Source: Sporopachydermia quercuum | Lineage: Eukaryota | DNA length: 64,000 nucleotides | Direction: 5' to 3' | Assembly: GCA_001599295.1 (NCBI GenBank) | Contig: BCGN01000001.1 | Coordinates: forward strand, 1,736,001-1,800,000 | Shown here: positions 24,574 to 60,840 of the stretch, one piece after another | How positions within the stretch are numbered: the stretch's first letter is position 1 | How the letters are laid out: every line of letters starts with the position of its first letter | Position numbers and translations under genes: made by a program | The notes under the pieces: model-generated | What the model was told of the DNA's origin: nothing | Seen by the model: the letters and a program-made list of their open reading frames with translations, nothing else | Database searches by the model: none

Positions 24574-26522
24574 ATGGCATCTTGTAAGTGGAAGGAAGAC
24601 GAAATAGAGACTGAATCGTTTTACGAGCTACTATCTAGAAGATGAATATGAATACTAACCCAGAATACCTTTTAGCACCAGCAATACAACGTAAGCCAAA
24701 TGGGACAAGTTCCCCACAAGCACAGCTTCAACCTAATATCAAGCCAACATCGCAACACACTCATATTCTGTCCAAAGCACCCATTGCTCCATCACCAGCT
24801 GGGTCTGGGTCTGTTTTGAATAAACGATCTCCAAGGACAATAGCTGGATCACCAGCATCCTCAGGCTCTCCAGATTATAGTGGGGGTCCAGTGAAAATTG
24901 TAACATCAAAGACATGGGTTTTGCCTCCAAGACCCAAGCCAGGTCGCAAACCGGCTTCAGATACGCCAGCGACTAAACGTAAAGCTCAGAACCGGGCAGC
25001 ACAACGAGCTTTCAGAGAAAGAAGAGCGAATAGAGTTGTGGAGCTCGAAGAAAAGTTAGCAGACGTGGAAAAGGATAGAGATGATCGGGAGAATATGTTA
25101 CAACGTTCATTATCACAAGCGACTAGTGAGAACTCGCTGCTAAGAGAATCTTTGATGGAAATGAGGCGCGAGATTGAACTGCTGAAGAAACAATCTCAGC
25201 TTGGAAATACTGCTAACTCTGCAATGAATTCTCAACCACTTGCTCCTGCTGCCAGAGATGTTAGAAACACATCACAAGCCGCTATGTTAAATACATCTAC
25301 TACTGTTTCAACGCCAAACTCAGTGATATCAACACCAGCAAGCACAGTGTCTCAGAATGAAGGCTTTGTTTTTCAGCAAGCATCACCTGCACCTTCATCA
25401 GCTGCTTCTCCTCATGATCTATTGGAGAAACCGAAAGACGCTTCTACTGAGAGCTGTGGCATTTGCGAGAAGGATGAATGTTTATGTGAGGAAATAGGTT
25501 TAAAAAATACACCTCAATCTATTGGTAGTATGAGCGATAACGTATCTGATTTCTCACCAATGGATGCGGTACCCTTAAGCAGAAAACGCAAGTCATCATT
25601 GGAAATTGATTTCACTGCCAAATTTTCCAGGCCAAATGCATCAGGACCGAAGAAGTTACCTCCTGCTCTCCAACCAAAGCCCCAATCTAAACCTTTATCC
25701 AAGGCAGGATCCACGATGTCATCGTTTTTGACCTTCTCTCGTCATGGATCTCTATCTATGCTAGCAGAGGAAGCCATTGCTGATATACCAAGAGCCAATA
25801 ATACTCTTGAAGTTCCGGTAGAGTCCTGCGGCTTCTGCTCAGATGACTCACCATGTGTATGCCGTGAGGCTGCTAAATCTAACATGCCTACTCCTACTTC
25901 TACTACTTCGGCCAACAACTCTGCCTCTAGTAACAATAATATGATGAATGAGCGAAAAAGTATAGGATCTACTTCATCATCTTCTTCTCTTCCACCAATC
26001 CTAGGTCCTTTCGGTGTGCAACCAAGTCGACACCAATCTTTTGAAAGAACTACCAAACTGCCAGTGTTCCATCCAGGTCCTACAAAAGAAGTTCCCAAGT
26101 CAAATTCAGTTTCCAGTGCAAGTTCTGGTTGTACTGGTAATCCAGGAACTTGTGCCCAATGTCAAAAGGATCCTATGTCAACACTTTTCTGTGCTACTTT
26201 GGCATCAAGGATTGAGAATGAAGAAGAAGCAGCAAAGACTCCAGGGAGCGCCAAAGGAAGCCCTGATGATAGCGACTCAATAAGGCGTGATAGTGATCCA
26301 TTGGCTACATCCACAACACCAATTACAGATGCTGTTCCAACTTCAGGATCTGGAGTGTTTATTCCTTGTGCAGACGCGTATAAGACTCTATCGCGACATG
26401 CCAAGTTTTCAGCTATGGATTTAGGAACAATAGTGCAAAAATTGAATACGAGGGGTATGGAAGTTGAAGTGCAAAGTGTGGCAAATGTATTAAGGGATTT
26501 GGATAAAAGGCTGTACAATTAG
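24574..26522 (+). CDS. HAP43: Iron-responsive bZIP transcription factor HapX/Hap43; predicted exons 24574-24583, 24676-26522
   Basis: Hap4-like VTSKTWVLPPRPKPGRKP, bZIP KRKAQNRAAQRAFRERR, Cys-rich CGICEKDECLC, CGFCSDDSPCVC, CTGNPGTCAQCQ. GTAAGT at 24584 and TACTAAC at 24653-24659 mark an intron. The track start (24642) lies inside it. Confidence 0.9.
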
Positions 26523-40871: not shown

Positions 40872-43375
40872 TCAGAACTCATTTTCCAGATATCTCAGTT
40901 CGAAGACAAAGTTATCCTTATCACGAAGGCCCCAAAATCCGCGATACTCAAAATATCGATAAGATCCCTGTTCAAAAGTATCCGTAACTGCTGTTGGAGC
41001 TCCTTTTAGTAAGAACCAAGTACCAAATTGCTTATGAAATTTCCAGTTCTGTTTCTTCAACTCTTTAGCAGCTAAATACTGTTCATAAGTCCCTTGCTGA
41101 TAATAGAAGATATAGAACAAAGTGTCTAGATTCATACGAGAGACGAACTCCTGAACAGAATCCAGCACCGCTTTAGTTTTGCTCTTCGTTTCACCTTCAT
41201 TACTGGCGTTGGAGCCATCAATACCGTCTGAATTGTCTGTTCTATCTGTTTCATTAGAAGGAATCCAAATAGGGTCTTGAGGGAAGAGTTCTGATGTTGA
41301 AACCAAATGTTGAGGTTGTCTTGATAATAATTTCTTTGCTACATCGTCGAGATCAAAATGACAGTTGAACGATTGTTCGAGAAACTTCGCAACAGAAGAA
41401 ATCTGCTGAGGACCTTTCGACACTCTGTTGCGAGCAGCATCATAAGCTGAAATAAGACTTTGTAGTCCAGGAGGCAGGGTGAGAAGATCTACAGTTAATT
41501 TGCTCGAATTGGTTGCTGATGCAGTTGATGATGAGTTTGATGTAGCTGTCGATGTTAATATTGATGTTGCTATTACTGAGTCTGTTGATGGTTTAGTACT
41601 TTGATCAGGATTCACTATAGAGGCATTCGTGGACAGAACCGCAGTTGTATTGGATGAAACGGCCCTAACCGGTGTTCCAGCTCTAGATGATACCAAATCA
41701 ACTTTATCCTTTGCAGCAGCATCAGGACTTGGTGTTGGTTTCCCATCACCAGAGACGGCACTGTCTCCAAACGTGCTACTTCGGCTCAAAGAGCCAGGGG
41801 CTTTCGTGGCTGTAGCTATGTGACCATTGCTTAAGGCCGCAGCGTATTTTAGTTCTCCAGGTCGAACTGGAGCAGGGGCAGGTTTTAGATTACTGGCACC
41901 TCCAGTGAGAGTTGTCGAGGAAGTAGAAGGAAATCCACTGGAAGAAGTTTTGCGAACTGTTCCAGTGCCGGTTCCAATGTTTGAATCCGAGTTGTTTCCG
42001 ATAATCGTTGAATTACCGCTTGTGCTGATATTAGTAGTAGAATTTGCAGTGGATGAAAGACTGCCTGAAGCAGCAGGCAATCCAGAAGAAGCCGAATTTG
42101 GGGCAGACGTGGATATCGATCCCGATCCGGAAGTTGTTCCCGTTGAATGTGCATCGTCTTTGCTCTTTCCGGTTTTACCCGGGATTGGTTCACTAACATT
42201 ATCATCCGCACTTATTCCAATCAAATCTTGTCCCAACACTTCCGACGCCAGCACTTCATCGCTACCTAAATCCAATTCATCATAAATACCTTCATCATCA
42301 GCAAAATCGGGCTCTTGGTTGGATTCCACATAGTACTTGATGTCTTCTTGTAATTCGTTCACTTGACCAGGCTCTAATTTCCCATTTTCCAGCAACCGAA
42401 GTATTAGTTCCATCTGAGTGATATGAAATCGGTCTCTTTGAAGAAACTCGTTTAAGTCCGCTATTCTTTCAGAATTCGCTGTTGCATTTCGTTTGGACTT
42501 CCGTGACGATACTTGGAGGCTATCCAGTTCTGCTTCCAAAGCTTCTGTTTGTCTTCCTAGTTCCTCAAGCATTGACGTTATAAACGTTGTTGTTTCCAGC
42601 TTTTCCTTCTCCCGAGGATCTAGTTTAGCTGACGAAGACAATCCCTCTTTTGAGTATGCTTTCATTTTCATTTCCTTTTCGCAAGCTTTAAATCGCTCCA
42701 TTTCCTGAATTGTGTTAGAATTTAGGGAGTGTAAAGCGAGTAACATAATTAACGGCTGTGGGCTAATAGTATATCCCATTATGTGTAGTAATACTTACTG
42801 ATTCGATTATTTTCCTGTTTTCAGTCAGCTGAGTTTTATCCTTCACATCATTACTTCCGAGCCACGACTTTATCTGATCTCTGAGTCTCTGTAGCTTTTT
42901 GATTTCTCTTTTCAGATCCTGTGGTACGTTTGTTAGTACAACGTTGTTGCTAAGCATCATGAGAGTAGGTAGAATAAATAATCCCTCTTTGACCAACGAA
43001 TTAACGTATTTTCTTACCAATTCAAGTTTTTCCTTCTGAGACTGGTTAGTCGACTGCATCATTTTGTCGTATATGCCATCAAATAGCTGAACACCTTCAG
43101 CTACTTTCTTGAACACTCGGTCCATTTCTCTGTTCATAATGTTAGAAAGGAGAACCATAAGAATGAAGTAATAAGTATCAACAATGGAGTGGGAAGCTGC
43201 CGAATCAAAATTGCATGGAATAGAGTATTGTTCCTCGAAGTATTCATATTAAATGTAATCATTGGAAATAATGCAAAGAATTATATTGCAATTTTTGTTC
43301 TTGTGAAGTGATTCATCCCACAACTGTGATAATGTAAGGAATCAACACTTACTGTTGTAGCTTCCGCTGCGACAT
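40872..43375 (-). CDS. NOT3: CCR4-NOT subunit Not3/Not5; exons 43375-43353, 43129-43018, 42918-42799, 42704-40872
   Basis: Spliced protein [20 protein letters not shown]...[26 protein letters not shown]...[27 protein letters not shown]-terminal NOT box ([31 protein letters not shown]). Three GTAAG(T/A)...CTAAC...CAG introns of 223, 99 and 94 nt. Confidence 0.92.
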
Positions 43376-45115: not shown

Positions 45116-47008
45116 ATGACAAATAATGACTCCAAACAACAATCGGCAACTGGTTTGCCTGGTCTTTTGACATCTACAACGAGGCAGTCAGTTGCTTCGG
45201 AAGCTTCAAAAGCTTCGACCAGTTGGGCATCTAAAATCCTCCCATCGTCAGCTAATTCACAGTTCTCTATAGTTGGGGGATTAGCAAAAGTCAATAATTT
45301 TATGTCAGGTGAATCAGATGAAAGGGTTGATCGAAACAATGCCAATTCTCACCATTTACATGAAATTGACATGAAGGACAACTTTGCGGAAGATGAGGAA
45401 GAGGAAAATGAAGATGATGATGAAGTAAGAAGATCATCGAGTATTGGTGGCAACAGAGCATTGCACTCCTTAAATGATTCCACGAACAGTGAATCAATTG
45501 AATCAGCGAAAATTGAAACAAATTATAGAAAACTATTTACCATAAAAGTTAGGAGAATCAAATCAAAATTCAGTACTAAAGGTTATAAAGCTGAACTTTT
45601 CCAAGTTGATAATTGGGATGAAATAGGCAACGCTAAGTATGTTGCCGGTAAGGAACAAATAGGAACGAACGAAAATGATAACCAAAATGTCTTTTGCGAT
45701 GTCATTTTTGAGAATCAAAGAGGAATGTTCTTATTCGGTAAGCCTTTTTTTTCATCAAGGACGTTATTTCCTCTTGATTCGCCTGCGTGGATGACACCTG
45801 ATGGTAAACCAGCACTAGGAAGTGTCGATTTCTATTCATTGCCGGATCCTTCATGGGAATGGAAATGGTCGAAGTGGTACATCAATATGGCCCTGGATGT
45901 AGATGAGCAGGGATGGGCTTATTCTTGGAGTTTTAGATCAGAAAATTGGTATGGTATACATATTTGGTTTCATTCGTTTGTTCGTCGGAGGATGTGGGTT
46001 CGATTAAGGCAGAAAAAAGCAATTGAAATGGAAGAAGGTAATTCGGGTTCCATCCGTTTGCTGGATGATTCGGATGCAATGAAATGGAAGCTTCCGTCAA
46101 CGGTTGTTAATGACATGAGTGAAATTGAGGTGAAAGAGGAATTGATTTCTGAAAGATTGAGAGGTAAGTCACTTTCAAAACGTAGTTCATTATCAGCAGA
46201 GGAAAACTTTGATGGTGATGAAGATGGCAATACATGTTTATCTGATATTGAAGTTAATGGTGGGAAGCAAGATATTAGTGAAGGTGATAGCAAGTCACAG
46301 CGTGGAACTCGAATAAGAATCAGCAGAAACCAATCCAAGAATGATTCTAAATCCCTGGAAGGCTCTAATGACAGTGTTCTGTATGTGAAAAATGGCTATT
46401 TGACAGCCGAATCGAGAAAGAAAGACGAAAGCGTTGAAGTTTTAGAGCTAATTCGAGAAATCCAAACAATGAAACTTGATAGACAAAGAAGTGAAGCTGT
46501 CATTCACTTTTTGGATGATAATTTATTCGATATCAGACAACTGAAAGCTTTAGGAGCCCATTTGGGAAATATAATTTGCGAGTATGTATTTTATGATTCA
46601 AAGCGATTACTTCTAGTTAAACTAGAAGGATATTTGAATAGGAAAGAACTAGAAGCAACATCTGAGTTTTTAACAGCTGGATCAATGGGCTCTGTAATGG
46701 AAAACCTCACTAAGAGCAAATCATCAGAAAGTCGTATTGAGGTTCCTACAGTTGGAGGTCCCCGAATTGTGATTACAGAAGGCGATGAACTGGCCTCTGA
46801 TTCTGAATGGAAAGAAGGAATTAGAAACGAACCAGATAAAACAATAAACACTCCGACAAAAACCAAAACTAGTGAAAATGCAAGGCAGAGTGGTAATGAA
46901 TGGTTACAAGCAGTTCGAAGTCTGAAACAACATATTGAAAATGCATTAGCAAATGATGATTATTTCATTGCTGGCGGGGCAAACCAGTATAATCTTCTAA
47001 TGAATTAG
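45116..47008 (+). CDS. SPO73: Dysferlin-domain protein, Spo73/Mug65 family (spore membrane)
   Basis: DVIFENQRGMFLFGKPFFS...LPDPSWEWKWSKWY...DVDEQGWAYSWSF...SFVRRRMWVRLR; next to the ACA1/CST6-like gene as in S. cerevisiae. Confidence 0.78.
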   Translation: MTNNDSKQQSATGLPGLLTSTTRQSVASEASKASTSWASKILPSSANSQFSIVGGLAKVNNFMSGESDERVDRNNANSHHLHEIDMKDNFAEDEEEENEDDDEVRRSSSIGGNRALHSLNDSTNSESIESAKIETNYRKLFTIKVRRIKSKFSTKGYKAELFQVDNWDEIGNAKYVAGKEQIGTNENDNQNVFCDVIFENQRGMFLFGKPFFSSRTLFPLDSPAWMTPDGKPALGSVDFYSLPDPSWEWKWSKWYINMALDVDEQGWAYSWSFRSENWYGIHIWFHSFVRRRMWVRLRQKKAIEMEEGNSGSIRLLDDSDAMKWKLPSTVVNDMSEIEVKEELISERLRGKSLSKRSSLSAEENFDGDEDGNTCLSDIEVNGGKQDISEGDSKSQRGTRIRISRNQSKNDSKSLEGSNDSVLYVKNGYLTAESRKKDESVEVLELIREIQTMKLDRQRSEAVIHFLDDNLFDIRQLKALGAHLGNIICEYVFYDSKRLLLVKLEGYLNRKELEATSEFLTAGSMGSVMENLTKSKSSESRIEVPTVGGPRIVITEGDELASDSEWKEGIRNEPDKTINTPTKTKTSENARQSGNEWLQAVRSLKQHIENALANDDYFIAGGANQYNLLMN

Positions 47009-50000
47009 AATTCAAAAAATGAGTGATTTTGAGTACTGGCCATCTGGTTATCTGAGGATTACAGATGCTCAATAATGACATCAAGGTGTGTAAATTACTT
47101 CTATGTGGTGGGATTGTAGTATATATTTAGAGTGTTTAGGGTGTTTAGGAAAGGGAAGACAACAACTGATAACTGGAAATATCTAAGAAAATATAAGAAA
47201 AAGAATTATAAATTAGCTTAAGGAAATTGAAGTAAATATTTCATGTCGTAATTTTCATTGTAATGGTATCTGTTCTTTTTCCGATAACCTATTTGATTGA
47301 TATACATATGGGGACCTGACTAGGTGAGAGTGAAGAAATGATGAGGTATTTCCTCGATAAAGAAATAAACTTCGGGAACTAATAAAGTTTCAGCGCAGAT
47401 TTAACCTTAATTTATTTTCTAAGAACTTTATGAGCTGAAATAGTGTTTAACTAAATCTCGTAAACCTTTAATCAAAGGAAAATAAAATTACATCGGCTTT
47501 CAATGCTCATCTTATCTTTATTAGTTTAACTTTGAATGAACAGGGTGGAAAATACATTAGGAACTTCGGAAATCTGCGAAGCTCAAACCTTTTTGATTTT
47601 GGTTTATTTTTTCTAAATAGAGATTTGACATTTTTACATGTTCGGATATGTTCGCGACTTGTTTCATTAGTGATATTTACGAGATAAGAACGGGTGCGTT
47701 GAAGACTTACAAACCAGTTCTGGTATCTCAATGAACATCTTCTGGTCAGAACAACAGAAAGTACAAGCGGAATATTTGGAAATAGTTTCTCAGCTTTTCG
47801 CTATAATAGAACCTAAAATATAAAAGAGACAAGTACCAGAAACTTACTGCTATTAAGTGTATGCCGCTATTTTGGTACATTATTTTGACAGCCAGTCAGA
47901 TGAGATGATTGAGTTTTCAGAAAATACCGAGATGCTTGAGAGAACCGAAAATGATGATTTGATGGAACTAAATTTTATCATCTCTTAAATTTTAAGTTCT
48001 TAATTGACAACGTAGAATTATGGTATGCTCTCTTAGATTTTATATTTCTCCAACCATGTATTTTAGGTAGCTATGAAGTCAATGAAGCCGTAAAAATATA
48101 AAGAACTAGATATCAATATATAGTTTTCCCCTTATACATTACGATTTTAGACAATTAAAGGAAACGTCTCTTTCAAGTTTATTCACATTCTTATATTAAT
48201 ATCATTGTTTCGCCTAAACAGGTTTGCTGTAGTTATTCATTCATAGAACTGGAACTTTGTCAGCTTTATAACCATCACACATCAAACTTCAGGAGCAGAG
48301 CAGTTTCAAATGGTGGTTAACCTGGCTCAATATATTTACAAATGTATAATTCAAAACATGAAATGAGGAAAAAACATTATTAACTTTGTTTTCTAGTAAT
48401 TTAGCTTACTTACCCTTTGAAAGTTCCATGACATCCAGTTCTCAGTGGTCATTGTTTGCTTTCGAACTGAATGATTGATTAACACAAATCTATTCCATAC
48501 ATTTCTTTAAAGTTTGGTTCAAGCATCCAATTATTTCTCTTGGATAGTCTGCATGACATAAATGGAAAGTCCAGTTCTCATTAGTAAGGAGATTAAATGT
48601 AACTCTTCTGATAGTCTCCACTTCTGATCAGCACTGCTAAGCTTGTTACTTTACTTTTCCTAATCTGACCTTCATTCACCATATCCTTCAGAGTTTTACA
48701 CTGTAATTATAATTTAGTTTCCTTTAAACTTTGTCTTCCCAAAAAGGTTTGTAATTAGTTCATAGTTCTGAAGTCAGTGAACAAGCTCTAACTTCAGTAA
48801 TATTCTGATAGTTGGAAAAATCTTGAACATAAATTAGCCAAATGTTCTGTTCCATTTCTCCAATTCAGCCAGAATTGCTAAAAGTTAAAACTCTACTTAA
48901 AATATATTTCCAGCTTCATTATTAGAATATTTTTCTTAATGTTTTGACAACATTGGTAGAAGAAAAGGGATGAAAAGAATTTAAGCGAGTTACCAGTAAT
49001 TGATAACAAATGAATGAACTGACAGTGAAATAAAAAAGATAGTTCTTTTGAGACAGTTACTACTACTAGTACTATACTAGTATTATTATCATCCTGTCCA
49101 CGTATTTTTGGTTTTATCATGTATATTCTTTTGACCAATATTTTGATCTTTGTTTTGCTTTAGTATGTTTCCTAAGTTTCTAAAGTTTCCTAAACTTCTA
49201 CGTACTCAGTATCAGAACTAGGATGTTGAGGAATAAGTTTCTGGTTTTTGCCAGTAATTATAGATTTTCAGTTTAGTTAATGAATAACTTACCCTTGTAG
49301 GTTGTCGAACATGATATCAGAGTAAAAAGTACGATTTCTTAGAAATACAGATAGCACCATATGTATTGTATGGTATGAAATGGCATATGGTCTATTCCCT
49401 CTATTGATGATTGGAAACAGTTTTTGAAACGTTTATCAAACTTTGTAGAACCTGGAATCCAATAAAAAAGAAATTAATAACAGTAGATATTACATAAGTC
49501 AGAGTTTATTTTAATACTTGGTTTCGGTACGAAGCCTTTACTTTTAATTAGAGGAACAGATGCTTTCAACAAGGGATAGCAATCGCCAGTAGAAGTTCAT
49601 ACAGCTATATAGCTAATTCAAGTAAATTGGGTATATAATAATCTTGAAGTATCTGATTTAACGTATTTGGTTTAGCAATTAATCGATATTAATTCTGGAA
49701 CATCAGTTTTTGGTAGCCATTAAATTTTGGCTCAAAAGCATCGAGCTACTTCTTTGAAATTGCCATTTGAACTGAGTTTAGATTTCTTTATTTCAAACCT
49801 TCTTATTGACTAGAAAAACTTCTGATTCACCTTGATGATTATAAAGAGATATTCTGTTGATTAAGTTGAATTTAAATTTGCCTTATCTAATCAACATTTA
49901 TCTAATCAACACTCAATATTGAGTGATAAGGTCCTGAATTCTTCCATGGCCCATTAAAGAATATGACTATGCATAGAGTACATTCGAAAATTTCAGGATT

Positions 50001-53000
50001 ACATACTTCAACTTTCAACATATTAGTTTTCCTGATACTATACAATCGTATTAGATTTACAAGAATAATATTATAACTAATAAATTGAGTGATTGATAGA
50101 TATCGCAAGCAAGATATGTGTTATTCATCGCTAATACTGAAAATTTACATCATCCAGTAGCTCTCAAGATAAGAAAACCTCTGAATGCTATTATCAATAA
50201 GTTCATTCTTATCTAATTTGGTTAAATGGTTGGTAACTATTTCTTGAGGAACTCTTCTTATTCGTCGAAAGCGGAGTGAACAAGTCAAAATGGTAGTCAT
50301 ATATCCTACTTGGTGTGACTACTACTTCGAATATTGTTTAATTCTTACATCTCTAGTGTGAGCATTATGTAATAATGAGTCAAGTACAGTCGTGTTTTGA
50401 GTCCTTTGAAGTTAAAATGCCCCAAGAAATTTTTAGCTCAAGTACTGTTATTGAGTGAATGATATGGAAGATGCGTAGGATACTTTAATTCTTGATGCGC
50501 TTCGAGTGAATTATTTCTCTAGTAGCTCAATTACCTTTAACTTCTATATTTGGTTAATGTTTAGTTCGAAAAATGAAAATTGTCACCTTCTGTTTCCTTA
50601 AAAGGAGATTGTTTCTCCTGCAATTACAAATGTTAAAAGCTAAGTCTAACTTTATCTTCAGGTTGCCGAATTAACTTTAGTTTCTAACTCTAATTTCTAG
50701 ATTTCTTCCCTTTCCTTCTATTGTTTGTTTACTTCAGACAACCAATTTTTTATGTTGTGCAAAATATGAAGATGCTTGAACAGAGGTTGAAGAAATCATA
50801 CAGTAGACAGTATACTAATCAAGATAATGTATCAAAACATAAGGAAGGAGTAATGCAATATAGAACATGGAGTTAATAAAGTCCTTTTCTAGACATATGT
50901 CAATAACTGATATTTTCAGGAGTTTTAGAGAAGTCCATATGATCACATTACCGCTCGCGAAGGGCTAGAGTCTCCGGCTGTTATCATTCTTTTGTATTTA
51001 CCAATTTTCAGACAATTGCACATTCTGGAATAGCAAGGAGGACTATGATTACTCAGTCTATAAAGCTCTTTTCACAACAATTACTTCGATTGAGCAAGTA
51101 GTCCATAAATCTGAGCCGTTGATTTCCAGTTCTTGAAAGGTACCCTTCTGTTGATTACCAAATTCAGCTTAATGTCAAAAAGTATATGTCCAAATTTGGA
51201 AATCAATATTTTAGTTGGAGAAAGATATATCTCATCTTATGGATATCAATCTTCATAGGGCATCAAAAGCCAAGATGGTGGATTCTAGGATATTTACTAG
51301 TTACTTAATCAAAGTTATGAGTTTTCTAATAACGACATTATTCGTAGACAGTTCAGTCTTAATTCAACATGTATAAAGGATGATCATCAACTGAAGTTAA
51401 TGCTGCGATTAGCTCAATTTCATTATAATTTCATCACTTGAAATTGCAATCTCAGCGAATATTATGAAGTTCTAGTTCATCCTTTCCTCAATGTAAAATC
51501 CGTGAATCTTCTTAGACTAATAATTGTTCCAACTTCTCTGAAAGCTTCTTTGTACAGTAAATGGAATTCTTATGCTGCCCAACGAAAGAATATCTCAACC
51601 TAGAAATTATCTCACTAAAATGAAATAACACAAATTTTTATTCCAATTAACTATCAAGTACTTTATATGATAGCTTATTTTGCTGGATACTTAAGTTGAG
51701 TACAGGAAGCCCCTATGCAAGGGTAATAATCAGGAATTTCTCTCAAGGATGGATGAGTTATATCCGTCAGAAGTTTGCTTGATACATCGTTTGAAATTCG
51801 AAAAACATATCATTCTTCTCTATGGTTTCGTCATTACCTGAGAGTGAGATAATTAGTGGTTTCCCTTTTGATTGAGGAAATACTCGGCTTCCACTAATCA
51901 CTAATCTAGAAGAATCTTGACTANAAAGGTATAACTTCTCACTTCCTGTCTTCCATCGAACTAACGGACGGCCACCTTATACCTATGTTCTAATACTGTA
52001 TGTCGTAATACTTAATGTACCACTATATCTCGTATATAATAGTTACTAATCATCAATAAACTTTGCTCGTAGTCGAAGAAGACATTTTTTCTCTTCGAAT
52101 TCAACGCCAATTCTTCATGATAGCACAAGCGCCGAAGTTAACTTTTAATTGGCTAATGCTTCAATGCAATTCTGCATTTCAATTCTAAAATCCAAATAAT
52201 TAATCCGAAAACATATAAGAATCTGAAAAGGAGTTTAACTTAATACTGGAAATGATAGATGACAAGTAAAATTTAGATATAACGAACTTGCTAATCTAAC
52301 CTTATAACTTCGCAGTATTTATAGTTTTGTCTGAGATTGGTTTTGNGCATCAAAGCTTATTCTACCTGCATATGGTGGAGAATCATCGTATTGCTCATCT
52401 TCCGAAAGAACTTTCTTTCATTGAAGCGCGTTGATATCATAATTTTAATAAATTTAGTAAATATAACAGAATTTAATAGATATCATTAAGAGTATGCACG
52501 GAAAAGAAATGAAGAACTAAAAGTTAGTTGGACTATGGAAAAAATGATTTTATTGATACTGAAACTTCTCATATGTAAACATATTAGGTAGCTTTAAATG
52601 GATTTGAAATATTCGGGTTCCTAGGATTTGTTATCGCTATTATTTTCTTCGGGATATTGGTAGTAATATTCATATGCCGAAAAGTTATTGCAAATCTGTT
52701 TCCAAGTCTTAGGTGACTAATTAGGAAATATTCGAACAAAAGAAGAATAGTGCATCTACACTTCCATATAGGTATGGCAGTCGCGGGCCAGAGGTATAAA
52801 ATTGACGTGTTTATGCATTAGATGATTATAAAACCCAATTATAGGAAATAATTACCATCTTGATTTGGCACGATACGGGATGAGATTAAAGGGGATGGTT
52901 AGTTCAGTTTAATGAAAATACATCGCTAGTTTAGTGAGAGTAGAATAGAAACTAAATGATCCGAATAAGATGTGAGGAGCACTAGAGATAAATGGAAACT

Positions 53001-54449
53001 AGGCGAAAAATATGAATGTGGATGTGATAGACATTGAATTCCCGAGTATTATAAACGTAATAGAAAATCTATTGTGTTCTAAATACCGGTATTAGTAATA
53101 CTATTGCAACTAGAAGTAATAATTTGGAGGAATAGTTTTCATAATCACTTTTCAGTGTAATGTCTCATTAACATCAAAATATTAAATGTCCTCCAAGAAC
53201 TGAAGAATCATTGATATACAACTATTCCATTGTTCTTTCGTAATCCTCATGTTCTCCACTTGTGGTTTTTTTCTAATAGAAATCTTCATTTTCTCATTTT
53301 CTTATTACCCTCTTTTGTTTTCCATTCTCTCTGAAAACTCTTACAATCACATTCAAAATAGAAACCCAATTCGATCTTATCTGGCATCTTTATTTTTTAC
53401 TTTCGATTTCACTTTAGTATCAAACATATACGGCTCTCTACATGTAATTCAATTGGAGGGTATATATGTAAAGTTGAACTACTGAGGAGGAATTCTAGAA
53501 CCTCGTGTATTGAGTATTAATTTTATATTATTTGGTTGCGGGCCAAATCCGTTTCTATATTGAAGAGTAACAATATGAATATATATGATTAATGACCATA
53601 AAAATAAAGCCGAATTTGAAATTGAATTCCATAGATTTGTCCCCACCTAACACTGAAAGCCTAACATATCTCAGTATTGCAAAACTTCTCATAGTAAATA
53701 GACATTCGCATCAGTTAAAATATGTGTCGAGTAATAAATTTTTGATTTCGACATAGGGCTAAAAAAANATGTTAAGCAGAAGAAACTTCGAATTTACTCG
53801 TCTTCAATCTGCCCGTCAATTGTAATTTCTATTTCTTGTGTCTGGCAACCAATTGCCAGATGCTTGATTCCCCACCAAATATTTCCTAGCATTCTCCACT
53901 ATGTCAATCGTACTACTTTTGTTTTCATTTTGGCATGCCGCCATAGTAGAAGTTATTCCAGACCCTAGAAGTCTAGAAACATTTTTATAAGTCACAACTT
54001 AATTTTAGTTATACTGGAGATACCTAGAAAGCAAATCCCCTAAAACCAGAGTTTAAATAAGGCTAAACTTTATTATATTAATCTGTCCACGTTATCTCCA
54101 TTCGACGTTTCAATTAACTCTTGCTCATCTTTGGAATAAACTTTGACATTTGGTTATGAAGGTTTTACAATAATAAATATATATATAAGAGATAATCCAT
54201 TGCAACTAGAAAAAAAGAAAAAAGGTTACGACTGAATAAGAAATCTAATTATCCATATATTCTCATTTTACATCATTTTGCAAGCGAAGATATATTAACG
54301 TAATCTGTGATTATTTGATAAAAGCTCTTTTCATTAATCATATCTCGTAATAGAACATATACCATCTGTTACAGTGCACTACTTTCATTGGTTTTAATAG
54401 CCATCTGAAGGTCTAATTTATGAACTAAAAACTGGCTGAGCAATATAAA

Positions 54450-55487
54450 ATGTTGTATGCACCCGATTATTACGGACCATTAGGAACAAATGGTTTCCCT
54501 GCTGACAATGGATTTGATCATAGTAATCCTCAACTACCTGTTACATATCATGAACCTATTTATGATGATCGGTATCCGGATCTAAATCAGGATTCAATTC
54601 CACCATCGCACGAATACAGTCTAGCAAGTACACATTATATGTTTTATCCAAACATAACTGCACCATCTATGAACTACTCTTCAAGTGAGAATTCGGTAGA
54701 TCAATTTGAGGAACCAATTTTCAATCAATCTGATGGTGCTGCTGCTCTATGTATATCTCCCATGATCTCCGAACCTTTGATTAAAGCACCATTGTCGGAG
54801 GATAGTGAATTTGGCACGTGGCGCAATACGAATCCTAAAGGTGCTTCGTTATCACCAAGAACTTTTGAAATAGATAATGCAGAACTCAAAATAGTACCTC
54901 AGTTGGACATGAGGATATTTCATAACGATGATAGTTCCAACAATAATAATGAAGGTGGTAGTCATGAGAACACTACGAATGATTCACCAGAATTGAATTC
55001 TAGGTTCGAGCTGAGCTCTCAAAGCATTCCTAACTTATCTAGTATGAGTTCTCGGCAGTCGTCTGTTCATATGATGCCAAGAAGTGAATCAACTCGAACA
55101 AGTTCTTTGAAGAAGAGAAGAACAAGATCGAAAAGAAATAAAGAGGAAGATGAACAAGCGAAGAGAATGAAACTTCTAGTTCGTAACAGGATTGCTGCTT
55201 CAAAATGTCGGCAAAGAAAAAAGGAATGGATCGGTCAACTAGAACAAGATAACAAGAAGTATACGGAGAAAATTGAACGTTTAACTCACACAACCGCCTT
55301 CTTGACTGAAGTCATATCGAAGCTGAAAAATGTATTGTCAGAGCACAAAACATGTCCCAAATTCTTGAATTCTGGAGGAGTGTTAGAACTCTTAGATATT
55401 AACCTTGCATTGAGTGGGACCAATGCAATGATGGCAGGTGTTGATACTGCAGTGGATGGTTTACCCGAAGAGACCAAAAATCCTTAA
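54450..55487 (+). CDS. CST6: ATF/CREB bZIP transcription factor (Aca1/Cst6 type)
   Basis: KRMKLLVRNRIAASKCRQRKKEWIGQLEQ plus leucine zipper; neighbourhood matches ACA1/CST6. TATA-like ATAAATATATATATAA near 54172. Confidence 0.75.
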   Translation: MLYAPDYYGPLGTNGFPADNGFDHSNPQLPVTYHEPIYDDRYPDLNQDSIPPSHEYSLASTHYMFYPNITAPSMNYSSSENSVDQFEEPIFNQSDGAAALCISPMISEPLIKAPLSEDSEFGTWRNTNPKGASLSPRTFEIDNAELKIVPQLDMRIFHNDDSSNNNNEGGSHENTTNDSPELNSRFELSSQSIPNLSSMSSRQSSVHMMPRSESTRTSSLKKRRTRSKRNKEEDEQAKRMKLLVRNRIAASKCRQRKKEWIGQLEQDNKKYTEKIERLTHTTAFLTEVISKLKNVLSEHKTCPKFLNSGGVLELLDINLALSGTNAMMAGVDTAVDGLPEETKNP

Positions 55488-58238
55488 AACTGTCAATACT
55501 TAGTGTTGACTTATGGGTTGCATGTTAAGAATGATTATCAAGTATTCTTAACAATTGACATTTACGTGCATTTCAGTTTTAACGACTTGTTTTCTTACGA
55601 TGTTTGGGGATTATGATATATCCTTTGTATAAGTAAGTAGAGATTTTCTCTGATTAGAGAACTAAATAATACATCATATTGGCTATTGGGTTTTAAATCA
55701 ATGTAAACAATCGTCAATGTATTAGTTATGTTGGAACAACCANTTGATAGACAGTAGTTAATCTCAACCACCACTTTTCAATTCTCCGATCACACATTAT
55801 ATACATATTATGGTCATGTCGGCTTTTGTTATTCAATAAAAACANAGATCATCACAAGGTTGAACGATTAATTCATATCTTGACATGATAGGGAATATGA
55901 CAAGAATTATCAAAATTTAAGATTGCTAGCATTCTTTATAAGTTTTTCAACTTTATTATATGAAACTCAGGGTATGAATGTCTGTCATCCTAATCCGGTA
56001 ATAATTAGACCAAATTTCTGCATATTGACATCATTTCACTGAGTAACTTTATCTTTTTCTAATAAATTTTTCCTATATTTGGCCAGATTCTTAGATCGTG
56101 GATAATTCTTATTTCAATTATAACTGTAATGATTCATAATTTAGCCCTTAGGCTAAATCATGTGGAAGTGGAGATTCCATCAGAGTGAACATATTATATT
56201 AGTATTCATAAAACCTTTCACTTTCAAGATAATATAAAACTGCTTGTTCTAAATGTCTGCCAACTTTTCCAATGTTAGAATTTGCACACCTTGGTTTCAA
56301 TAAAGCGGCACAACAAAAGATTATCATGTATATTTAATCGAATTTTCTTAGTTGAGGGTAATAGAGATGGTAAAACACTCTCATATTCTATAGCTCTCAT
56401 CTCGACTAAACAATGCAATTTCTAACTGTTGTTATGTCCATTCTTTTACTGAAATGTAATGTCTAATTACTCCAGGTTTCAACTCTATTTTGATTTATGG
56501 ACTAAAAAAGTATTGCCAGGGATCTAAACCGTAAATCACCTAAGTTCAAATGCCGAACTCAAAAAAATCCACTTTTGGAAATTAACGATGATTAAGCTAA
56601 AGTTGCACCACCAGAGTAATAACTTCCAACCTTCTTACTAAACAAGTGTATGCTTTTTACCAGTCAAGGATGGCTCTTCCATTATAAGCAGGGATAAAAG
56701 AAAGATGGACAACAGTATTCTATTCCGCCGTTTGGTGGCTTGCTTCATGAGGTCAGAGCTGCGCTAACAAAAAAAATTGGAATCTAATATGAAAACTAGT
56801 AGAAAATAATGCACAACTACATATGCCTCAAGTTGAAAGCATTCAAGTACAGAAACTTCAAATGTTTTTGCTAGAACTGAATTTCCAGTATAATCATGAA
56901 ACAATCAGGACTGTTGTATAGGTTATTCGTATTGTTGCTTGCACCAAATTCGAGTATATAGTCCTTGGGTGAGTGGAATATCTTTCCCAAATTACTATTC
57001 TATATGTATAGCAAGCCGATAAAAACCAGAAAAGGAAAAATCCCCGATATCTCTTCTAGATATTGGTTTCGTGACAAAAACAATAGTCATCAATTACATT
57101 GAAAGTTCTAAGAAAACCTGATAGGACAAATATTTCACATGTTTTGGCTGGTTAAGAATTTTCGACTGAAGATTGTTTTGGGTAATTTTTCTCAGCTGTT
57201 TTCCTGTTCCTGATTGAGATGAGATAGANCTGAAATTTTGTTGGTATGATTAAATGGTCTGACAATTATCAAAGCATTTACCGAATCTCAGACAGTTCAA
57301 ACTCTCATTTGATTTTTCTATTGTTCCTCAGTTTCATCGGAGAACAATAGAATCTAATCGAAGTTTTCAGTTTTGATTAATCTCCTTGTCTTGTATTGCA
57401 TTGCAATATTCAGCCTCGTTTCTGGCAATGTTAAAGCACATATTCAACTTTGGAATTATATATACTAGAGATCTAGCAAAACTAGGTAAACTATACTTTT
57501 GCATAGTTATATAAATGTAGCCGGTGAGTACCTGTCTACATTGCAGCTCATTCATATAGCATATATATACATATATAAAGAATACAGTAAATAAGAATGA
57601 GCATATAAAATTAAAATTAAAATTAAAGAATTTCATACCCCATTCATTGTTTACTCTTGATTGAAACTGGGTGGCTAATTATTTCAAACTATTAATCTCC
57701 ACCTAACAACTGGAATTCCTTTTGATTCATTGCTCATTCACCGATCGGTGAATGAAATATTAATGTTTAAACATCGTCCTTGCAGTTTTCTTCCAGCAAT
57801 TTCGTATTACTTCACATCTCATTCCATTTTTTTATTTTTTATACAAATTATCCACCTAACTTTATTCAAACAATATGAAATTTTTTACTTAGTGTCAAAC
57901 TCTAAATATGGGTGGGTATCGAAATCTTGCATGTGACGACGGGTTATCGGCATTTAATTTCAACTTGTGTGCATTTATTTACATCCCCAACAATGAAATG
58001 AAATAACCAGAAGCTGACAATGAAGCTAGCAATAATCGTTACTTCGTTGTTTTTGTTTGTAGTAATAGCAATTAAGAACAATATTATATCAAAGATGAAT
58101 TGGATGGTAAGGAAATGTAGGGTACGATATAGAAAGAAATATATGCAAGTTAAGCTTTCTGCTGGTAGAAGCATTCAGAATATAAATTCAATTGAGGCTA
58201 GAATCAAAACACTTCGTAACATATTTTTCAATTTGACA

Positions 58239-59590
58239 ATGAAATATTTTGATGATAAGAAACCAGAATTAGCTCTCGTAAGATAATAGAGACCTTGAGA
58301 ACTAGAATACAAATCGACCAACATAAATTGCATTGCTGCAGAAGACACTGACTCCTTCGAAATATTAACGTGAATCAATAACACATGGGTTAAGGCATTT
58401 GCTCTCATCAGAAGTAAACCGAAAGGTGAATCAATTCATAGTATGTTATTTACTACTCGACTATAAACTAAAACCTATGTTTCGACCATCATATATTAGA
58501 CATGGAGTGATTTACGATCTACTTAACTAACACCAAACAATGTTGGGACAGGCTTCAGGGAAAAGCTTCTGAGAGGTCTGGTTCTCTTCGATGATTTCTG
58601 CGGCATTAATGCCTTTAAACAATCGCAAATTGGTAGAAATGAAACTAAAACCTCTTCACACTACAGAACACAGGATGAAATATTGAAAGGTAATTACTTT
58701 GAGATCTTGCGATCACCCAGTATTCAGTCAGTTGAGTTATTGAGGAATGAAGTCAAAACTACTAGTTTATTTCTAATTGTGAAGCTTGATCAAATGACAG
58801 GTAAGAGAGATTGACTTTATGCATTAGCTTGTTTGAGAATTCAGAGATCCCAACAATCTAATCTTTCATAGAGCAAGAATTTTCATGTTCAGTCAAGAAG
58901 CTCAGCCTCCTTTTGGGAGTTCAAACTCATCGGCAAGAATTCTTTGATTCAAGTTATCATTTAAAGATAGTTGATAGTGTCAAAAAATATCTCACCACTC
59001 AGAGTTCGAATGATTGTTTTACAACCAGTTATTTAACTACGAGGATACTCCAACTTGTATCTGTTTTATGTCAGTTAGGTGATCCACTTGAAGATACAGC
59101 GGAAGATACAGCTCATGACATCGTAGAGTTTTTGGTTGACTCTCTATGCTCTACGCTTATTGACATTACTTATTTACCTGATATAATAGATGTGACCATA
59201 CAGGAAGAGATTTTGAAAGTGTATAATAAGTGGAAGTTGATACCGACGAAAGGACTGGAATTTGTTTCTTTATTGATAGGGAGAATTATAAATTGTTTCA
59301 TTAAATGGAAGCTACTCAAAGTAACAATGAGCGAATATTCATTTGAAGTGCAAAAGCTATATACCACTTATCTGAAGCTCTTATGCATTCTTCAACGAGC
59401 ATTACATGAGAGTGCTAGTGATGACATTTGCATAGTGAGTGAAAAAGAATTCGTTGAGGCCATCAAGTGGAAGTGCATGTTGTTCAAGATTGTTTCCGAC
59501 TATAAAGATAATTCAATGAAAATGTTAGCCAGATTCGATTGGAATTGGTTAAATGATACACATTCTGTGAGACATCCTAAGTTGATATAG
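58239..59590 (+). CDS. MEI4: Meiotic DSB protein Mei4/Rec24 candidate, 350 aa; exons 58239-58277, 58395-58440, 58552-58800, 58872-59590
   Basis: Splicing gives MKYFDDKKPELAL|AFALIRSKPKGESIHSFREKLL, resembling the Mei4 N-terminal signature (LALALAIIRSKP in vertebrates, from memory). All junctions keep frame. Introns 2 and 3 have near-consensus signals; the gene sits next to ACA1/CST6 as MEI4 does in S. cerevisiae. Confidence 0.72.
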
Positions 59591-59682: not shown

Positions 59683-60840
59683 TTAGATTTGTAGATTTGA
59701 AGCCTGTTTTTGCAGCTTAGCTTCTTCGGCTTCAACAACTGGTTCAAAATAAGCATGGTTCATTGCTTCGGCCGCTGTCAATCTCTCTTGATGATCATAC
59801 TTCAAAACACGATTAACTAAATCTATAGCCTCACCTGAACATATGCTTCTGTTTTCGTCATTGATAAATCTCGACCAAGCCTTTTTAGAGTAAACACCAA
59901 GTTCGTCATACTCAGGCCCGAGTGCAATAGTATACTTATCAAGATATTCAAAAAAGTCATCTGTACCCAGAACTCGCACTATTTTTACTAGTTGATCGGT
60001 ATTTGAATTACCATGGAAAAACGGTTCCCGTTTAAATATAATTGAGGCAAACATTGCTCCAAATGACCAAAGGTCCAATGAATAATCATATTGTCTAAAA
60101 TCAACTAATAACTCAGGTCCTTTGAAATAACGTGAGGCAACTCTCACATTATATTCCATTCCTCGATGATAAAATTCAGCCAAACCCCAGTCTATCAGAC
60201 GCAGTTTACGATTAGCATGATCAATCATAACGTTGTGAGGCTTAACATCCCGATGCATTATCCCCATTGAATGTGCATAGTCCAAAGCTTTCAATAATTC
60301 ATACATATAGTATCTCACATCAAAATCAGTAAACTTTGCATAAAGGCTTCTAAAATCTTGATTATCAACATATTCAAATACAAATGCCGGCATTTTGCTC
60401 TAATAGATGCCTGTTAGTCTTTACTCTTGCTTGCGACCTCGTCAAAACAAAGGATATCCAACAATCAATTAAATTTAACATACTTGAGGGTCTCTTACCA
60501 CGTCTAATAATGTGATGATATTAGGTCCACCATCAATGTTTTGCAAAATCTTGATCTCTCTTTTTATTTTCTTTCGTTTAACAGGTTTTAACACTTTTAT
60601 TATTACTTTCCTATTACTCGAATCTTTCGAATCTTTATCTATCGGTATGCGTAAATCAATACCTTCAAACACTTCAGAATACTTCCCGCGTCCCACTTTT
60701 CTAGTGATTTCATAGAAATCTGGCTTTCCCCATACTATTGATACATTATCATAATCCCAGTACGATGCTGGCATATTTTCATTCACTTCAGCATACACTC
60801 TTGAATAAGAACGCAGTTCAGGGTGAGTATCATCTTCCAT
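59683..60840 (-). CDS. CKA1: Casein kinase II catalytic alpha subunit; exons 60840-60484, 60399-59683
   Basis: [79 protein letters not shown] (Cka1-like). 84-nt intron GTATGT...GACTAAC...TAG. Confidence 0.93.

Follow-up and report, generated by a model that had tools for sequence, protein, structure and literature searches.

Mei4 is a fast-evolving accessory protein of Spo11 that helps to start meiotic recombination. Does a locus of the budding yeast Sporopachydermia quercuum, whose long open reading frame (ORF) has neither an early start codon nor detectable relatives, encode this protein? The locus is located at positions 58239-59590 of the plus strand of the window analysed here, which comprises the 64,000 nucleotides at positions 1,736,001 to 1,800,000 of the contig BCGN01000001.1 (assembly GCA_001599295.1); all coordinates given below are those of the window. 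An earlier note on this DNA had proposed that a MEI4/Rec24-like gene with four exons is hidden at this position. Our analysis supports this interpretation circumstantially. The locus quite likely encodes an all-helical protein of approximately 350 amino acids that would be a very divergent orthologue of Mei4, known as Rec24 in S. pombe, as MEI4 in mouse and as PRD2 in plants. Three lines of evidence converge on Mei4: a motif formed at the junction of two exons, a sub-threshold match to the Pfam family PF13971, and the location of the gene in the expected syntenic slot. The orthology of the candidate, its binding to Rec114, its function, its meiotic expression and its start codon are inferred.

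Structure of the candidate gene

The candidate gene consists of four exons and three introns, all on the plus strand. Exon 1 (58239-58277) is 39 nt long and ends in phase 0. Its 13 codons, MKYFDDKKPELAL, encode the residues Met1 to Leu13, including the LAL that forms the first three residues of a hydrophobic helix motif. Intron 1 (58278-58394, 117 nt) has a GTAAGA donor and a branch-like site TATTAAC at 58363, and the first AG past this site belongs to its AAG acceptor. Its signals are the weakest among the three introns of the candidate gene. Reading exons 1 and 2 through the unspliced intron 1 meets four in-frame stops. Exon 2 (58395-58440, 46 nt) encodes AFALIRSKPKGESIH and carries one further nucleotide, with which a split Ser codon begins. 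This exon supplies the remainder of the helix motif and Arg19. Intron 2 (58441-58551, 111 nt) has a GTATGT donor, an AACTAAC branch at 58525 and a CAG acceptor, the first AG, 20 nt past the branch. These signals are fully canonical for a budding yeast, as in the intron of the neighbouring gene for casein kinase II alpha (CK2-alpha). Exon 3 (58552-58800, 249 nt) contains 82 full codons and two split codons and sits inside a stop-free frame of 95 codons (58527-58814). Intron 3 (58801-58871, 71 nt) has a GTAAGA donor, a branch-like site TCTAATC at 58857 and a TAG acceptor 9 nt downstream of it; its donor is common to all open models, regardless of whether the strict or the loose splice rules described below are applied. 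Exon 4 (58872-59590, 719 nt) is the anonymous long ORF of the locus. It contains 238 full codons and one split codon and ends with the stop codon TAG at 59588-59590.

Measured from stop to stop, the frame of exon 4 (58862-59590, plus strand) extends over 242 codons. It shows no in-frame ATG before codon 156, and its longest ATG-started part encodes 87 amino acids (59327-59590). Upstream exons are therefore required. When the four exons were joined by a script, a sequence of 1053 nt was obtained, which corresponds to 350 codons and the TAG, with no internal stops. The frame-consistent model of four exons and 350 amino acids, which the earlier note had put forward, is reproduced by this joining, and its coordinates all check. 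The N-terminal signature, described there as cut by intron 1 between the exons of 39 and 46 nt, likewise appears on joining as LAL|AFALI. The ORF had also been rightly recognised as the last exon, but its size of 225 amino acids did not hold; the frame spans 242 codons, and the exon comprises 238 codons and the split one. By every test run on the sequence, the locus 58239-59590 is a real protein-coding gene model with four exons.

The ATG at 58239 was provisionally kept as the most likely start codon. Further in-frame ATGs are present upstream of it at 58020, 58095, 58104 and 58143, and a TATAAAT was found at 58181. The frame of exon 1 (58002-58286, plus strand) is open for 79 codons upstream of the ATG 58239 and has a hydrophobic, signal-like start at 58020. 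The codon usage of this upstream extension (58020-58238) looks non-coding, with 1852 of 3000 null segments scoring at least as high. The codon CTG is read as Leu in this yeast. Of the four CTG codons of the CK2-alpha exon, three align with Leu in 118-120 of 120 homologues, and the remaining one is located in the unconserved tail. The window has a GC content of 36%, an AT-rich composition of the budding-yeast type.

The strict splice rules used here were taken from the confirmed introns of the window. Removal of the CK2-alpha intron (60400-60483, minus strand; GTATGT..GACTAAC..TAG) restores the kinase frame. The Not3/5 gene on the minus strand contains three introns with the signals GTAAGT..TTCTAAC..CAG, GTAAGA..TACTAAC..CAG (43017-42919) and GTAAGT..TTCTAAC..CAG. 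The read-through frame of this gene is matched by Pfam Not3 as two stretches flanking the GTAAGA intron (E 2.3e-30). Since Not3/5 has both features, GTAAGA donors and genes with several introns are normal in this window. The strict rules accept GTATGT, GTAAGT or GTAAGA as donor and [CT]TAA[CT] as branch; the acceptor is the first AG that follows at a distance of 7 nt or more. Under these rules the region 57900-58900 contains seven candidate introns, and six models open into exon 4. Five of the six carry the same three introns and differ in the ATG alone (58020, 58095, 58104, 58143 or 58239; 423 to 350 amino acids). The sixth has a single intron, the ATG 58794, a first exon of 7 nt and a product of 241 amino acids. 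The region 57900-58790 was shuffled 2000 times with preservation of the dinucleotides. None of the shuffles led to an open model of at least 341 amino acids; models with at least three introns appeared in 3 shuffles, and any model with at least two introns in 44. The loose rules admit 8 donors, 23 acceptors and 37 introns, which result in 144 open models. The uniqueness of the three-intron structure therefore depends on the strict rules.

The N-terminal motif

The junction of exons 1 and 2 creates the octamer LAL|AFALI at the model residues 11-18, which is followed by Arg19. In the text quoted from Laroussi et al. (PMC10425845), the stretch 13-LALALAII-20 of mouse MEI4 helix 1 contacts both REC114 protomers. 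The octamer of the model is identical to this stretch at six of eight positions, the other two showing conservative exchanges (Leu/Phe and Ile/Leu), and the distance from Met1 is nearly equal. It is formed solely by the proposed splice of exon 1 to exon 2. When the entire window was translated unspliced in six frames, with about 128,000 octamer positions, a match to the mouse stretch at six of eight positions was found once and at five of eight positions 14 times.

The contacts of the second helix of mouse MEI4 to REC114 are T33, L36, A37 and V40, as listed in the quoted passages of the same article (PMC10425845). The offset of -2, which also applies to helix 1, maps them to R31, L34, L35 and L38 of the model, spanning the junction of exons 2 and 3. 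According to an excerpt of Liu et al. (PMC10393192), helix 1 of Mei4 'nearly always' ends in a basic residue, which is R29 in S. cerevisiae. A basic residue, Arg19, is present at the end of helix 1 of the model. The model sequence carries the feature of the Rec114-binding helix (SSM1), which is a run with a hydrophobic residue at every one to two positions in the first ~30 residues and with a basic end.

Profile and sequence searches

The stop-to-stop piece that contains exon 2 (58374-58463, 30 amino acids) has a single Pfam match. This match is to the family PF13971, Mei4, with E 0.062 and 13.1 bits over the profile positions 17-35 of 340. Unspliced stop-to-stop pieces were used in this and in the other Pfam scans. 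A blind scan of the 124 such pieces of at least 20 amino acids located between the two neighbouring genes led to ten matches at E<=1 in eight pieces, one of them being Mei4. By our estimate, with about ten noise matches over 24,736 families, a family specified beforehand would be matched by chance in ~4 of 10,000 cases. The value of the Mei4 match is its identity and not its score. In these piece scans, exons 1, 3 and 4 gave no match to PF13971. The strongest of the ten, a match to RTG2_C on the antisense strand (58178-58435, E 0.0047), was attributed to chance; 124 queries should produce about 0.6 such matches, and it is supported by no ORF.

The earlier note had suggested that automated annotation and BLAST could miss this gene, and the searches with exon 4 are in line with this. 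Among 5.8 billion clustered proteins, 609 word-sharing candidates were scored, and none reached E<=0.01. An exhaustive phmmer search of 1.84 billion representatives resulted in no match at E<=0.001. Because the protein collections contain no close relative of the yeast, these null results reveal little on the annotation status of the gene. The distance of the lineage from the collections is also evident from the neighbouring genes. The best matches of CK2-alpha show 72-74% identity (Brettanomyces, Saccharomycopsis and Kuraishia are among the best named matches), and the upstream bZIP gene has 32 matches, all to distant bZIP domains, the best of which covers 25% of the query and is 40% identical. 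The exon 2 piece matched no PDB sequence at E<=10, and exon 3 gave no match in either Pfam or the PDB sequences. The tRNA and Rfam scans of the window detected no RNA genes.

The predicted helical body of the protein

The single-sequence AlphaFold2 model of exon 4 is all-alpha with nine helices (pLDDT 44.0), and that of exon 3 is helical with three helices (pLDDT 43.6). Folds cannot be compared reliably at such low values. The look-alikes of exon 4 in the ESM Atlas are all eukaryotic alpha-solenoid proteins of low recognition, namely HEATR5A, DOP1 TPR, Tra1 central, DNA-PKcs N and SYO1; neither Mei4 nor AAR2 is found among them. A Foldseek search against the PDB gave no match at E<=0.001, and its best matches, designed helical repeats and TPR proteins, are uninformative. 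In an excerpt of Daccache et al. (PMC10393190), Mei4 is modelled as N-terminal Rec114-binding helices followed by an atypical helical core of HEAT repeats. The helices predicted for exons 3 and 4 would be compatible with such a HEAT-like core, in which Mei4 proteins carry the motifs SSM3-SSM6 in collinear order, without being specific to Mei4.

Gene neighbourhood

The upstream neighbour of the candidate (54450-55487, plus strand) encodes an ATF/CREB-type bZIP protein of the ACA1/CST6 kind (Pfam bZIP_1, E 1.3e-10). Its best relatives are atf21-type bZIP proteins, with the match confined to the bZIP domain. The downstream neighbour is the CK2-alpha gene (59683-60840, minus strand), which has two exons, 60840-60484 and 60399-59683. 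YIL036W and YER045C of S. cerevisiae are tabulated as a duplicate pair in an excerpt of the literature (PMC1895995). The candidate is transcribed from the same strand as the bZIP gene and is convergent with CK2-alpha; further upstream are Not3/5 on the minus and Opy2 on the plus strand. In S. cerevisiae, MEI4 (YER044C-A) presumably adjoins ACA1 (YER045C) on one strand. We take the genes NOT3-PRM2-CST6-CKA1 to be YIL038C to YIL035C, with CST6 as YIL036W and CKA1 as YIL035C, and the sister region to carry ACA1-MEI4. On this S. cerevisiae map, the position of the candidate matches the slot and the orientation expected for MEI4 beside ACA1/CST6 and CKA1.

Several other features of the surrounding DNA were observed. 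The Not3/5 gene (40872-43374, minus strand) has three short introns, of which the second (43017-42919, 99 nt) is in frame and stop-free. If retained, it would add 33 residues inside the conserved Not1-binding N-terminal domain. An ORF of 630 amino acids (45116-47008, plus strand) matches no Pfam family at E<=0.01. It contains the Trp-rich stretch WEWKWSKWY...GWAYSWSF, which may resemble dysferlin-type motifs such as that of Spo73, whose gene flanks ACA1 on its other side in S. cerevisiae. The following 7.4 kb (47009-54428) show no stop-free frame of at least 100 codons on either strand, no tRNA and no Rfam match. This region has a GC content of 30-34% and contains four single N; intergenic regions of budding yeasts are not usually this long. 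A centromere, a decayed mobile element, or multi-exon genes that were missed by the ORF listing could be located in it. A candidate intron of 92 nt (24584-24675, plus strand; GTAAGT..TACTAAC..TAG) overlaps the apparent ATG of a Hap4-like gene (24642-26522), and the real start of that gene may therefore be located in a short upstream exon.

Evidence weighing against the assignment to Mei4

A number of observations weigh against the assignment of the candidate to Mei4. The first of them concern the motif. In the excerpt of Liu et al., the first residue of SSM2 is a Trp (W34 in S. cerevisiae) that is nearly invariant among Mei4 orthologs (PMC10393192). In the model, Trp is absent from all positions before residue 232, and Phe30 is the sole aromatic candidate where the second helix is predicted to begin. 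Moreover, the N-terminal motif is not an independent discovery, because it was the motif itself that drew the earlier reader to the locus. The Pfam match is open to similar objections. Its 13.1 bits are far below the gathering cut-off of 25 bits. The alignment begins four intron-coded residues (TWVK, including a Trp) before the acceptor, so that part of the score may be intronic. It is also no stronger than the evident noise of the blind scan (RTG2_C with E 0.0047, HNOB with 0.031 and NCH3 with 0.053). The similarity of exon 4 to AAR2, which is discussed below, is as weak as the Mei4 match of the exon 2 piece. Exons 3 and 4, which account for ~320 of the 350 residues, show no similarity to Mei4 in the Pfam scans, and both structure models are of low confidence.

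Further objections come from the gene model and from its context. The branch sites of introns 1 and 3 deviate from the consensus, and the acceptor of intron 1 is an AAG. The codon usage is weakly coding-like, with 184 of 3000 null segments scoring at least as high as exon 3 and 253 of 3000 at least as high as exon 4. The promoter motifs URS1 and MSE were not found in the region 57400-58238, a result that is uninformative outside the Saccharomycetaceae. The synteny argument depends on the gene order taken here for S. cerevisiae, and a better MEI4 could be located elsewhere in the genome, outside the window.

Alternative explanations

The locus may be a real spliced gene whose product is not Mei4. 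It would then encode a lineage-specific or unrecognised helical-repeat protein, the likeness of the motif would be due to chance, and the ACA1-CKA1 interval would have received the gene by rearrangement. No search yielded a significant family assignment, and the noise-level Pfam match and the missing SSM2 Trp are as expected from such a protein. Much of the window, which contains genes from many unrelated families, is not collinear with S. cerevisiae. This explanation nevertheless appears unlikely, since it requires that the motif at the residues 11-18, the Pfam family and the syntenic slot all coincide.

Budding-yeast genes often begin with a very short exon, and the gene might be shorter than proposed. 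In this form, translation would start at the ATG 58794 with a first exon of 7 nt, intron 58801-58871 would be removed, and 241 amino acids would be produced, whereas exons 1-3 would be untranslated or non-coding and open by chance. This is the sole other architecture that survives the strict splice rules, and exon 3 resembles coding sequence only marginally in its codon usage. However, the frame in phase with the donor 58801 is stop-free over 91 codons upstream, and the canonical GTATGT..AACTAAC..CAG intron ends 25 nt past the opening of that frame. The short form also leaves the N-terminal motif as a coincidence, and a long open model with several exons was obtained in 0 of the 2000 shuffles. 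We regard this form as very unlikely.

It is highly improbable that the gene is an orthologue of AAR2, an assembly factor of the U5 snRNP. The residues 133-199 of the exon 4 frame (58862-59590) align with the residues 275-342 of human AAR2 (7pjh_A; E 0.043, 16 bits), and the same stretch matches the C-terminal region of AAR2 in Pfam (PF05282; E 0.11, profile positions 52-120 of 160). This weak local similarity covers 67 residues and falls within the C-terminal helical part of the protein, whose overall length would roughly suit AAR2. The Pfam match, however, has 12.9 bits against a cut-off of 23.6 bits, and it is not independent of the PDB match. The human chain is the sole match in the PDB; no S. 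cerevisiae Aar2 chain, which we assume the PDB to contain, was found at E<=10. The N-terminal domain of AAR2 is matched neither by exon 3 nor by the first half of exon 4, both of which are predicted to be helical. Furthermore, there is no AAR2 cluster among the Atlas look-alikes and no support from synteny. The local similarity to AAR2 is probably due to chance, though it appeared in two libraries over the same residues.

It is highly improbable that the locus contains no gene or merely a pseudogene in decay. Its codon bias is low, two of its introns have weak signals, and it has no relatives in the protein collections, but with ~0.073 stops per codon estimated at the composition of the window, the chance of an open frame of 242 codons is ~1e-8, and the four exons join with no frameshifts and no stops.

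Proposed role of the candidate protein

As a divergent Mei4, the candidate protein would acquire its first helix (LAL|AFALI, then Arg19) only once exons 1 and 2 are spliced. By analogy, this helix would insert into the ring made by the C-termini of two Rec114 molecules, and exons 3 and 4 would encode the helical body that serves as the HEAT-like core. The resulting 2:1 complex of Rec114 and Mei4 would help to build the machinery that enables Spo11 to introduce double-strand breaks during meiosis. Since the helix needs two micro-exons (39 and 46 nt) to be joined over an intron with weak signals, and since an in-frame ATG is present at 58794, it is conceivable that meiosis-specific splicing of MEI4, or the choice of the start site, gates break formation by switching between a Rec114-binding form and a form of 241 amino acids without the helix. 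Such gating is distinctly unlikely.

Comparison with known Mei4 proteins

The candidate shares with mouse MEI4 the N-terminal helix with an alternating run of Leu, Ala and Ile and, by prediction, the helical remainder of the protein; the overall size of mouse MEI4 is presumably similar to that of the 350-amino-acid model. The two proteins differ in that no similarity is detectable past the first ~40 residues, the compared residues being those quoted in the excerpt of PMC10425845. In the yeast candidate, an intron divides the motif, so that each of two tiny exons encodes a part of it.

With S. cerevisiae Mei4 the candidate has in common the spliced gene, the basic end of helix 1 and, by low-confidence prediction, a helical and possibly HEAT-like body. 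We take S. cerevisiae MEI4 to have one intron, whereas the candidate has three. The S. cerevisiae gene is listed as an intron-containing meiotic transcript in Table 1 of an excerpted study (PMC3082912). Unlike S. cerevisiae Mei4, the candidate lacks the residue corresponding to W34, and their sequence similarity is undetectable, with the Pfam match below the threshold.

The divergence of budding-yeast Mei4 proteins past recognition has precedents. MEI4 of Saccharomycodes ludwigii is described in an excerpt of PMC8567612 as having 'little or no similarity' and as identified 'mostly based on synteny', and the Mei4 homologues of C. albicans are called 'not recognizable' in an excerpt of PMC2365976. 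Compared with Sd. ludwigii, the candidate adds the evidence of the N-terminal motif on top of synteny. Its multi-exon structure, which distinguishes it from both cases, is a second cause for being missed. According to the quoted part of Hinman et al. (bioRxiv 10.1101/2021.05.14.444243), Mei4 homologues are defined by six short signature motifs and are missed by standard BLAST.

Significance

The result is otherwise one at the level of annotation, and it concerns an already known family. The apparent absence of Mei4 in some yeasts, for example in C. albicans (excerpt of PMC2365976), feeds arguments on the loss of meiosis or of recombination. The locus described here illustrates how such an apparent absence can be an artefact, because the sole recognisable motif is split over two micro-exons and is followed by a long exon without an ATG or detectable relatives. 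In surveys of the meiotic toolkit in poorly sampled, intron-richer yeasts, the ACA1-CKA1 interval should be checked with spliced models before a loss of MEI4 is declared.

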